DNA of 64,000 bases. It comes from a virus. Taxonomy: Duplodnaviria > Caudoviricetes. Location of the stretch: IMG/VR virus record IMGVR_UViG_3300028909_000001; one strand, written 5' to 3'. This document shows positions 15,884 through 23,469 of this stretch, in pieces; position 1 is the stretch's first letter, and each line of letters begins with the position of its first letter. Below the pieces are notes generated by a model that was not told the origin of the DNA, did not search any database, and worked only from the letters and a program-made list of their open reading frames with translations. The position numbers and the translations under genes are program-made.

Positions 15884-16678
15884 ATGCATTTAAATGAACA
15901 CTTTATTAATGGTTTTATTAAGGCTGCTCTAACTAATCCAGGCAATATTAGTCAACCTAAGCCAGCTCCTAAACCCAGCTCTCCACCTATTCAATCAGCT
16001 CCTTCACCTAACCCAGCTCCACCTCCTCCTTTAGCCAACACTCCTCCACCTCAAGTTCTACCTACTCAACCACCTACTAATCTAAATCATGGTATTATGC
16101 CACAATATGATGGTTGGAAATTGAGGGGATATGCTAAATCTAATAATGGTGGAACTTATGATTACCAAGATACTGCTGGTAAGTATCATTTAATGAATCA
16201 TGAATTAGGTGAAGGTGCTCAAAGTTTGGAGGATTTTAACAACGATAATAGTATATCTAATGAAAAACCAATTGCTAGACAAGCTATTACTCCAGAAGTA
16301 GAGAACCAAGCTTTGCGTTCAGCTTATAGTAATTTAGGGAAACCAGATCTGGATTTGAATAGATCTGCTAACGATATATTAGGTGATCCATATACTAGTG
16401 TTGGTCTTCCTAGAGTAGATAGCGTTACTAGAGGTGGTAGTCCTGAACCTGATCCTAATGAGTTATATCAAAGACTGCAACACAATATGACGAATAATAA
16501 CGGTCTATTCGATCAATTACAAAGTGCTGCTAATGGTCTGCCTGGTAGATTGTGGAATAGTGATCCTGGAATTCATGAACAAGGTATGGGTCAACTATTG
16601 CAGATGGTTAAACATCTAGCCACTACTAATCCACCTTTAGCTCAAGAATTGTATCAGAAGTACTTTGGGCAAAATTGA
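15884..16678 (+). CDS. FINGFIKAA-leader protein with Pro linker and unknown cargo domain
   Basis: MHLNEHFINGFIKAAL followed by a Pro-rich tract. Confidence 0.75.
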   Translation: MHLNEHFINGFIKAALTNPGNISQPKPAPKPSSPPIQSAPSPNPAPPPPLANTPPPQVLPTQPPTNLNHGIMPQYDGWKLRGYAKSNNGGTYDYQDTAGKYHLMNHELGEGAQSLEDFNNDNSISNEKPIARQAITPEVENQALRSAYSNLGKPDLDLNRSANDILGDPYTSVGLPRVDSVTRGGSPEPDPNELYQRLQHNMTNNNGLFDQLQSAANGLPGRLWNSDPGIHEQGMGQLLQMVKHLATTNPPLAQELYQKYFGQN

Positions 16679-16683
16679 TAGTT

Positions 16684-16720
16684 AAAAAAGAGGTTGAGTT
16701 TGCACTCTCAACCTGTTGTT
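16684..16720. terminator. Intrinsic terminator between convergent genes
   Basis: AGGTTGAG/CTCAACCT stem flanked by an A6 tract and a T-rich tract. Confidence 0.75.
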
Positions 16721-16725
16721 TTAAC

Positions 16726-17166
16726 TTATACTCCTAATACTTTAAAGGTACTAGTAAGGTCAGCTTGGAGACGCTTCTTTTCTGAGGCCCTACAGAACCA
16801 ACCAACGCCTCTGCTTGTTGGTAAAAAGTTGTATTTAAACAACATTTTCTTATCTGCCGCTGCCTCATTAAATTCCTGCTCAGAACAAGGAACATAACCA
16901 TCGCCGGTTTCATCAGGTTTTGAAAACACCCATATATCATAGGTTTCCTGTGTATCAGGATGATTAGTATTTGCAGCATCAGAAGCCCCAAAAGGAGCTT
17001 TGGTTATTTCAAATGGTCCTTTTGTTGGCAAGCCTGGTGCCAAAATCCATATCTCACCGGATCCATCGCTTGCCGGCAGTTGAGGCCAACAACGCTCACA
17101 AGAAGCCACTATTACGGTGCAGCCCCTTCCCTCAAATATTTCTTTTATTTCCTGCCTCGTTCTCAT
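16726..17166 (-). CDS. Hypothetical protein
   Basis: ATG ORF with AT-rich leader, bounded by terminators. Confidence 0.7.
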   Translation of the reverse strand: MRTRQEIKEIFEGRGCTVIVASCERCWPQLPASDGSGEIWILAPGLPTKGPFEITKAPFGASDAANTNHPDTQETYDIWVFSKPDETGDGYVPCSEQEFNEAAADKKMLFKYNFLPTSRGVGWFCRASEKKRLQADLTSTFKVLGV

Positions 17167-17219
17167 ATTTTTTGTCTTTCATCCTTTTGCTTAGTTTGTT
17201 ATGCTGGGATTGTATTGTT

Positions 17220-17244
17220 AAAAAAGAGGGATGATTAATCCCTC
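17220..17244 (-). terminator. Intrinsic terminator
   Basis: GAGGGAT/ATCCCTC stem followed by a U tract on the minus strand. Confidence 0.65.
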
Positions 17245-17252
17245 ATGAAATA

Positions 17253-17654
17253 CTAAATCCGCCCTACAAACACCCACTGCTTGTGTTCGAAAGTAGGTTT
17301 CCCACCTTCCACCGTCCGTTGCACATTCCATGCAGAGTAGCATGGAATTGCCGTCCCACCTCCAGTTACATATCTTGCAGTTTCATTAACCAAATGGGAC
17401 TGCACCGGTGCTGCAAAGACACCAAACACCGCCGAGAATATATTCTCGGAGGGAGGACAGTCAGGAGGACAGTCAGGAAGCTCCGCGTACTGCAAGTACG
17501 CCACCACCCCCAATAAATCGTCATCAGTCTGGATTGACATGGAGGCATACTTTGTTGCCTCCTCCAATATCACCAGTTCGAACCCCATCCCCACCGCCTC
17601 AGCGGTTTGGACAGGGGTTGGGGTATGCCGTGAAAACCACAATGCTTTTTTCAT
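17253..17654 (-). CDS. Hypothetical protein (MKKALWFSRH...)
   Basis: ATG 17654 downstream of a class A promoter. Confidence 0.7.
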   Translation of the reverse strand: MKKALWFSRHTPTPVQTAEAVGMGFELVILEEATKYASMSIQTDDDLLGVVAYLQYAELPDCPPDCPPSENIFSAVFGVFAAPVQSHLVNETARYVTGGGTAIPCYSAWNVQRTVEGGKPTFEHKQWVFVGRI

Positions 17655-17708
17655 ATTTATTAATTGTTGATTGTTCTTATAACAAAGGCTAATATCCTTG
17701 TTCATTAT

Positions 17709-17749
17709 GTTATACCACAATTACTTGAAATCATGGTAGAGGGGTGGGG
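17709..17749 (-). promoter_or_regulatory. Class A promoter (C-box-N22-GGTATAAC)
   Basis: CCCCACCCCTC-N22-GGTATAAC. Confidence 0.7.
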
Positions 17750-21056: not shown

Positions 21057-21899
21057 TTACCCTTCCCGAACAAACCTGATCTTATCTGCACATGGCCCCT
21101 TCTTATTAGTGGAATATACGAAAGAGACGGTATCTCCTTCATATAGTTTCCCGCTATCGATGGGAAATGTTACATCTTCCCAGTTAGTGACGTGCCAGTA
21201 TAGCCGTTGTGCCCCAGGGATATTGGGAAGAATAAATCCATACCCATTAGTGAAGATGGAGATGACAGTACCCTCCACCCTTTCATTAGATGAGGTCAGT
21301 TCCTTCAACCCAATGTACCGAATCTGCCCACCAACTGAAGAAACGGTTTTCATCTCGAACTCAGGTAACATTTCAATGATTTCGGAGAGCGATGTAACTC
21401 CGAACTCAGTGTAGTCTATCTCTGGGTTGAGCTTTTTCAAAGTCTCCCCTACAGATGCTAAGTTCGCACTCGGCCCACCCAACTGCCTTATCGTAGCTAA
21501 ATAGGCAGCCTTGATTTGCTGCTTCACTACATCTGATATTGGTGGGAATGCCTCCGGCTTGATCTCCTTCACTACCAAAGTAGCAATGGAGTTGGTTTCG
21601 CCACTAACCGGATCACGCTTTACCACATTAAGCTGAATTTTCCCAGCCTGCAGTTTCCGGAGCATGAATCCGGCATACTTCCCACCCGCCAATGTAATGT
21701 CAATAACCAGATCGATTACCTCCTGTTCGACCTTGACCGACTTCATCTCTGGTTGAATATTAGTGAGTTTAGTGAGTTTAACAACTTCCTCAACCTCAAG
21801 TTCTGTTAAGGAGCAGGAGGTTGAGTTGAGCCGAGGGACATACTTGAGAATCTCCTTACTAGAGATTCCCAACTTCTTAGCTAATTCGTGAACGCGCAT
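21057..21899 (-). CDS. IF2-N-like HTH + OST-HTH/LOTUS + cold-shock domain RNA-binding protein
   Basis: MRVHELAKKLGISSKEIL; LASVGETLKK...YTEFGVTSLSEII; GTV...GYGFI...LYWH...GDTVSF. Confidence 0.8.
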   Translation of the reverse strand: MRVHELAKKLGISSKEILKYVPRLNSTSCSLTELEVEEVVKLTKLTNIQPEMKSVKVEQEVIDLVIDITLAGGKYAGFMLRKLQAGKIQLNVVKRDPVSGETNSIATLVVKEIKPEAFPPISDVVKQQIKAAYLATIRQLGGPSANLASVGETLKKLNPEIDYTEFGVTSLSEIIEMLPEFEMKTVSSVGGQIRYIGLKELTSSNERVEGTVISIFTNGYGFILPNIPGAQRLYWHVTNWEDVTFPIDSGKLYEGDTVSFVYSTNKKGPCADKIRFVREG

Positions 21900-22073
21900 A
21901 TGTTTTTAGTTTGAAGGAGGAACAAGGAATTTATCTTGTCCCTATTATTGATTGTGAGTTTTACAGGAGTTCTAACAACCCCCTCCTGCCTTATCTTTAT
22001 TGCTGGAACAAAAGCCAGCAATTGAATTTTTGCGATTTTGATTTTCATTAAGTTAACAAACTCTGTTCAATAT

Positions 22074-22115
22074 ATTATACCTGATTATGGTAAATATAGA
22101 TGGTGGGGGGAGGGG
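22074..22115 (-). promoter_or_regulatory. Class A promoter (leftward)
   Basis: CCCCTCCCCCC-N23-GGTATAAT. Confidence 0.65.
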
Positions 22116-22151: not shown

Positions 22152-22192
22152 CCCCTCCCCTCCTAATTATTTTGCCTAAATAAAGGTATAAT
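22152..22192 (+). promoter_or_regulatory. Class A promoter (rightward)
   Basis: CCCCTCCCCTC-N22-GGTATAAT. Confidence 0.7.
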
Positions 22193-22915: not shown

Positions 22916-23278
22916 ATGATTAACATTAATGAACTAACTATTGGGGAAGTCAAGGAACTGGCAAAAATTGCTCAGTCGTTAAACCTCTGTTCCAAACCTG
23001 CTCCTGAAAATAACTCCCATCCGTACCAAGTCGGTGATAAATATTTCGTACGGACCGTTACCCATCACTATACCGGCCAGTTAGAGCAGGTATCGGAACA
23101 TGAGTTGGTCCTCTCCCAGGCCGCATGGGTTGCAGATGATGGTAAGTTTTCAGCAGCGGTCAGTTCTGGTAATTTCAATGAAGTTGAGATGTACCCGGCT
23201 TGCCAGAAAGTGATTATTGGTAGGGCTGCGATTTTGGATGCAGTAATGATTCCGGTGTTACCTACCCAGACCAAGTAA
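22916..23278 (+). CDS. Conserved phage protein (VRTVT...YTGQL...AAWVAD), possible Sm/SH3-like barrel
   Basis: Motif pattern recalled from phage proteins found next to SRS repeat ORFs. Confidence 0.75.
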   Translation: MININELTIGEVKELAKIAQSLNLCSKPAPENNSHPYQVGDKYFVRTVTHHYTGQLEQVSEHELVLSQAAWVADDGKFSAAVSSGNFNEVEMYPACQKVIIGRAAILDAVMIPVLPTQTK

Positions 23279-23288
23279 GTGAAGTTAA

Positions 23289-23469
23289 TAGGAGGGGTTG
23301 GAGAAGAATAGTCTTCAGCCTCTCCTAATTATATTTAGTAAGCAGTTTACTTACTATTTTGTCATCTAATTTTTTTGCCAGCTAACAATAACAAACAACA
23401 TGAACATTTCTTTACTACGAGCACAATATGATAACGCAGGGTCAAGGTCATGGTCAGGGACAAGGTCAA
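23289..23469 (+). repeat. Duplicated leader + MNISLL cassette, copy 2
   Basis: Similar to 22427-22637; the long palindrome is shortened here. Confidence 0.85.

Follow-up and report, generated by a model that had tools for sequence, protein, structure and literature searches.

The question raised by this locus is what a phage protein is that begins like the initiation factor IF2 and continues into RNA-binding domains, and what it may do for the phage. The window analysed here is a stretch of 64,000 nucleotides within a 151-kb virus record that is 69% complete. An open reading frame (ORF) at 21057-21899 on the minus strand encodes the 280-aa protein P0001, the coding sequence of which is present on 41 contigs as four near-identical variants. 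An earlier note on this DNA had described an IF2-N-like N-terminus, a central LOTUS domain and a C-terminal cold-shock domain (CSD), and the Pfam matches, an IF2 profile and structure matches of the AF2 model bore out all three. Its three-part division was incomplete, since it overlooked a fourth conserved domain at residues ~63-112. P0001 therefore has four parts, namely IF2-N1, an unnamed domain of 50 residues, LOTUS and CSD, which lie as follows.

21057..21899, minus strand: gene for the IF2-N1 / mid / LOTUS / CSD protein P0001, 280 aa (ORF call, Pfam, composition)
21765..21899, minus strand: IF2 N1-derived domain, residues 1-45, eroded, with a 5-residue gap after helix 2 (Pfam, profile, alignments)
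21564..21713, minus strand: family-specific mid domain, residues ~63-112, a helix and a beta hairpin, without a Pfam name (alignment of 21 members, model)
21303..21539, minus strand: OST-HTH/LOTUS winged-helix domain, residues ~121-199 (Pfam, structure match)
21069..21281, minus strand: cold-shock (OB) domain, residues ~207-277, with GYGFI and YWH motifs retained (Pfam, structure match)

In Pfam, OST-HTH was found at residues 139-187 with 31.8 bits, over the cut-off, and the CSD at residues 213-275 with 25.5 bits, slightly below its cut-off of 27. IF2_N at residues 1-19 scored 25.1 bits against a cut-off of 25.3, and 27 bits, over the cut-off, in a second run. The AF2 model of P0001 has a pLDDT of 82; its LOTUS fold matches 2kpm (Z 9.7) and TDRD7 (Z 9.0), and its CSD fold matches Unr 4qqb (Z 11.1). 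Of the six CspB-type stacking positions, the CSD keeps four (Y220, F222, Y234, H236). The mid domain is common to all family members, as aligned over 21 of them; it had no match at Z >= 2 in a fold search and none in Pfam or the Atlas, which does not in itself make it a new fold. The GTPase and fMet-tRNA-binding domains of IF2 are absent, the 280 aa being taken up by other domains. Neither Pfam nor the AF2 model placed a NYN nuclease domain in the polypeptide, as the earlier note had stated, and the 151-kb record, which is 69% complete, yielded no NYN either.

To see where this arrangement comes from, we searched 1.84 billion representatives with the single sequence and obtained a full-length relative, P0005, with a match over residues 2-277 (E 2e-15). 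A profile search yielded more than 20 proteins with the same domain order, and a metagenome scan added more. Family members were defined by homology over mid and LOTUS together with N1 and CSD in the shared order; P0001, itself among the 21 rows of the A8 profile, matches that profile at E 8.6e-34. The full-length relatives number about 25 and come from soil members of Limisphaerales (Verrucomicrobiota). This assignment is indicated by the named members and by the genes for IF2 and NusA in the respective genomes, and one member is flanked by PVC hallmark genes. Genome G001 (GCA_035511075.1, locus L020) is labelled 'Baltobacteraceae' at NCBI, which is likely wrong, as the named close matches of its IF2 start are Limisphaerales or Verrucomicrobiota. 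The family gene occurs in two of 401 genomes of the order and in one of 31 genomes within the family that includes G001, and a 400-genome phylum sample held no further members; the other matches in the order and in that sample are ordinary NYN-LOTUS proteins. The possibility raised in the earlier note, that this is a common cellular gene, is thus ruled out: the cellular gene exists but is rare. As such, P0001 is not a phage invention and belongs to a rare Limisphaerales family with the order N1-mid-LOTUS-CSD. We found no description of this split, IF2-tagged architecture in the literature searched, the coverage of which was incomplete.

The composition of the phage gene agrees with a foreign origin. 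Its GC content is 45.7% and its GC3 is 50.9%, compared with 23.2±6.8% for phage genes, which marks it as foreign and fits acquisition from a GC-rich donor. GC3 exceeds 50% in just one further gene, at 17253-17720 (52%), which is probably foreign too and has no Pfam match. CSD genes occur on dozens of viral contigs, and a search for other phage copies in IMG/VR, where close relatives of this genome may be missing, returned only CSD-only matches and one stand-alone IF2_N protein; a query with the RNA polymerase found no related phages. The P0001 gene indicates a Verrucomicrobiota gene donor, possibly the host, for an uncultured peat jumbo phage. On a second, unrelated phage contig (L002:3799-4314, plus strand), a 171-aa protein has a clear IF2_N domain (47 bits, over the cut-off) and its gene immediately precedes terminase-like genes; phages may have used IF2_N more than once.

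Bacterial OST-HTH versions are almost all fused to a nuclease (PMC2848206), and the cellular loci explain the 'missing' NYN of P0001, because in cells it is the adjoining gene. Upstream DNA was available for 24 distinct cellular loci; the immediately preceding gene is a NYN gene in 16 of them and a CSD-only remnant in two, while the remaining six have neither. The NYN gene is nearly always NYN-CSD, with the family gene following at 20-40 nt, and the NYN acidic motifs D-x-[ED]-N, KNA[AS]D and SGDSD are intact except for one site in one locus (L006). Most NYN-linked loci fall in one clade and are therefore not independent events. The CSD-only genes of 95-96 aa upstream of the family gene (L013/L014 and L109/L148) represent two separate NYN losses, which suggests that the nuclease is costly or dispensable. 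Several loci lie amid defence-type genes, their neighbours including NucS, an SMC-like ATPase, HNH, Nmad3, REase-ARP, an N6 methylase and PIN. Directly upstream of the phage gene there is no NYN, the region being a leader and a promoter-like element. In a tree with long branches, P0001 and four NYN-free members lie on one side of a branch with support 95/87 (79/34 in another, weaker tree); forcing the phage, itself on a long branch, into the main NYN clade was marginally rejected (p-AU 0.043). Since P0001 groups with NYN-free cellular members, the NYN loss probably predates capture by the phage. Among the NYN-free members nearest the phage by path length, two (L003, L169) follow a KamA-family radical-SAM gene. 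The main find is thus a module of two genes in cells, apparently undescribed so far, whose adaptor has borrowed N1 from IF2; the phage carries a divergent, nuclease-free member.

The origin of the N-terminus is clearest in the cellular members. The family gene in G001 shows 85% identity over its first 59 residues to the IF2 of the same genome, and its N1 shares 45 of 50 residues with its own IF2 compared with 40 and 35 for two other IF2s. Cellular members resemble Limisphaerales IF2 starts about as closely as those starts resemble one another. Limisphaerales IF2 carries N1 and N2, and the family captured N1; one member (L004) also retains the IF2 linker motif and another (P0025) both N1 and N2, longer stretches which show that a real IF2 gene was the source of the N-terminal piece. 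The phage copy is more diverged. Its identity to family N1s is 24-40% with a 5-residue gap, while cellular N1s share 46-68% with one another, and the strong IF2_N score is limited to the first 19-26 residues. Nevertheless, residues 1-48 scored 21 bits on an IF2-only profile built from 21 Limisphaerales N-termini, whereas none of 2000 shuffles exceeded 8.3. When phage N1 was searched against 301 Verrucomicrobiota genomes, 22 of the top 25 loci were IF2 starts and two more were IF2-like starts at contig ends; the best IF2 matches came from other Verrucomicrobiota and were somewhat better than that of G001. A generic DNA-binding HTH, which the earlier note had considered fatal to its reading, is ruled out by the profile score and these matches, and the N-terminus derives from IF2. 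Relative to the cellular proteins, phage N1 is conserved about as much as LOTUS and CSD, and it is modelled as folded (pLDDT ~75-90).

We also analysed the DNA upstream of the gene, where the following features were located.

21900..22067, minus strand: predicted 168-nt leader with three hairpins (21999-22022, ~21963-21989, 21918-21943), from folding, with the start site inferred from the -10 box
21881..22048, minus strand: 55-codon ORF within the leader, overlapping the P0001 start (ORF list; called in L001)
22074..22114, minus strand: promoter-like element, a C-rich tract followed by GGTATAAT, from a motif search; half of a divergent pair whose partner ends at 22192 on the plus strand

The GGTATAAT copy ends at 22074, 175 nt upstream of the gene. 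Only four intergenic copies exist in the record, and they form two mirror-like divergent pairs with a common C-rich tract, at 22074/22192 and 54865/54946. The predicted leader has a fold z of -2.4, equal stability being reached in two of 200 shuffles, and no Shine-Dalgarno (SD) motif precedes the ATG of P0001. The claim that P0001 is the first gene after a class A promoter applies to full-length genes; it is not strictly the first ORF after the promoter-like element because the 55-codon ORF, which has no Pfam match, precedes it. Metatranscriptome contigs from four peat studies cover the P0001 region patchily and can neither rank expression nor exclude DNA: one contig of 151 nt falls within the gene, and a second run gave low depth across its 5' part. 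Elsewhere, 15901-16668 and 22921-23433 are covered by RNA-library contigs in all four studies, which does not in itself show transcripts. RNA contigs of two studies join across 16683-17221, from which it follows that a 146-aa ORF (16726-17166) is missing in some strains and that the leftward accessory block is strain-variable.

Considering what the borrowed piece could do, work on E. coli provides the main lead. There, IF2 N1 binds NusA KH2/AR1, as seen by pull-down, cross-linking and tracking (Metelev and Johansson 2025, PMC12297416); it localises with RNA polymerase without noticeable ribosome binding, and N2 is the ribosome-linked copy. Limisphaerales NusA ends in an AR1-like C-terminal domain. 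The IF2 piece is therefore more likely to direct the protein to the transcription machinery, as an address tag, than to mimic IF2 in recruiting ribosomes, and we tentatively favour, by analogy, a P0001 of host origin that docks at transcribing host RNA polymerase as an RNA chaperone or adaptor. Judging from E. coli N1 and the AR1-like domain of Limisphaerales NusA, N1 would address NusA KH2/AR1 on transcribing RNA polymerase, and the tag would bring LOTUS, for structured RNA, and CSD, for single-strand binding and the melting of hairpins, close to nascent transcripts. In cells with NYN, the tagged adaptor could deliver the nuclease to nascent RNA; in the NYN-free branch and the phage, it may serve as a tethered RNA chaperone or an antiterminator-like helper. 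The phage protein would be made early from a host-type promoter, would keep early phage transcripts unfolded, could ease termination or pausing, and would perhaps displace IF2 from NusA. The phage has genes for a multi-subunit RNA polymerase of its own, so any importance of host NusA may be confined to the early phase. A wider proposal, which we regard as unlikely, is that Limisphaerales reuse N1 as a portable NusA-docking tag for the NYN module and that the phage adaptor occupies the IF2-NusA site, steering early transcription-translation coupling or shielding RNA from the nuclease.

The state of phage N1 bears on this reading. The E. coli contact also involves residues 57-90 (PMC12297416), for which P0001 has no recognised match, and a complex prediction of phage N1 (residues 1-48) with NusA KH1-KH2-AR1 of the stand-in host G001 gave no answer (score 0.00). 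Given the identity of only 24-40% and the gap, the tag may be dead in the phage, in which case the gene is merely a borrowed RNA chaperone. The next reading, somewhat unlikely in our estimate, has a plain, untethered chaperone in which CSD and LOTUS shield phage RNA or unfold it, possibly in cold peat, with N1 as a decaying relic or an aid to condensate entry. All four domains persist while N1 is eroded, and CSD genes are widespread among viral contigs, both of which fit such a chaperone; however, N1 is folded in the model and conserved about as much as LOTUS and CSD relative to the cellular proteins. The leader also fits, as cspA-type leaders are long and hairpin-rich, like that of P0001. Condensate entry finds some backing in a preprint that describes cold-induced condensates driven by IF2 N-terminal regions (bioRxiv 10.1101/2025.02.02.631968), but the work described there concerns a disordered region that is nearly absent from P0001.

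The docked chaperone or adaptor must also be weighed against a role in counter-defence, in which the cellular NYN and its adaptor form an RNase module directed against phages, with the phage copy titrating the nuclease or filling its docking site. The two-gene linkage with intact NYN motifs, the patchy distribution of the family, the defence-type neighbours and the position of the phage gene behind an early-type promoter all point in this direction. However, the phage copy groups with cellular members that are already NYN-free, six cellular loci retain the family gene without NYN, and the NYN and adaptor pair has no known defence role, with the PADLOC model set giving only weak, single-domain matches (CSD_V and NYN); we consider a decoy quite improbable.

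The earlier note had proposed that P0001 mimics IF2 and recruits ribosomes to SD-less or leaderless phage mRNA. Phage genes do seldom carry SD motifs (10 of 133; 5.0 in shuffled sequence), but donor-lineage loci are equally poor in them (8 of 61; 6.1 in shuffled sequence), so the translation of SD-less mRNA does not call for a dedicated phage factor. Boxes resembling a -10 element are modestly over-represented 6 nt ahead of the ATG (13 of 133 phage genes, compared with ~5 at other spacings), which suggests that a few phage genes are leaderless; P0001 has no evident means to serve them. Even with an N1 genuinely derived from IF2, ribosome recruitment is very unlikely for a protein without a G domain or tRNA-binding domain, with an N1 whose E. 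coli counterpart binds NusA and not noticeably ribosomes, and with a cellular version that adjoins an RNase.

The docked adaptor would be of interest beyond this phage. IF2 N1 had no known job until 2025, when NusA binding was shown in E. coli, and a family in which N1 was copied onto RNA-binding domains beside an RNase, together with a phage version, offers an independent test of N1 as a general address for the transcription complex. The family also gives a handle on the bacterial NYN-LOTUS nucleases, which have no known targets.

Compared with known systems, P0001 shares with CspA/CspE RNA chaperones and antiterminators an OB fold with the main RNP1 and RNP2 aromatics, but it is multidomain, the CspB W8 and F30 positions are altered across the whole family, and its CSD scores far under the NCBIfam cut-offs. 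With IF2-alpha Domain I / N1 (PF04760), it shares the N1 sequence and predicted fold, cellular members being nearly identical to their own IF2; unlike IF2, the family lacks the GTPase and C-terminal domains and is fused to RNA-binding modules, and the phage copy is eroded. The comparison with the IF2 N1-NusA interaction extends as far as binding evidence from E. coli only. The eukaryotic NYN-LOTUS endoribonucleases MARF1 and DNE1 likewise pair LOTUS with a NYN nuclease for RNA targeting, but as single polypeptides docked on the decapping machinery, whereas the P0001 family is bacterial, encoded by two genes and IF2-tagged. Bacterial proteins that combine an LK-nuclease (NYN/LabA, PF01936) with OST-HTH in one polypeptide, in some cases together with an S1/cold-shock OB fold, are a further known kind (Anantharaman et al. 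2010, PMC2848206). They share with the P0001 family the order LOTUS then CSD, the association with NYN and a sporadic spread by lateral transfer. In the P0001 family, by contrast, NYN is either missing or encoded upstream in a gene of its own that also carries a CSD, and IF2-N1 and the new mid domain replace it at the N-terminus. Taken together, the P0001 family is apparently a previously undescribed split, IF2-tagged form of the bacterial NYN-LOTUS-CSD proteins.
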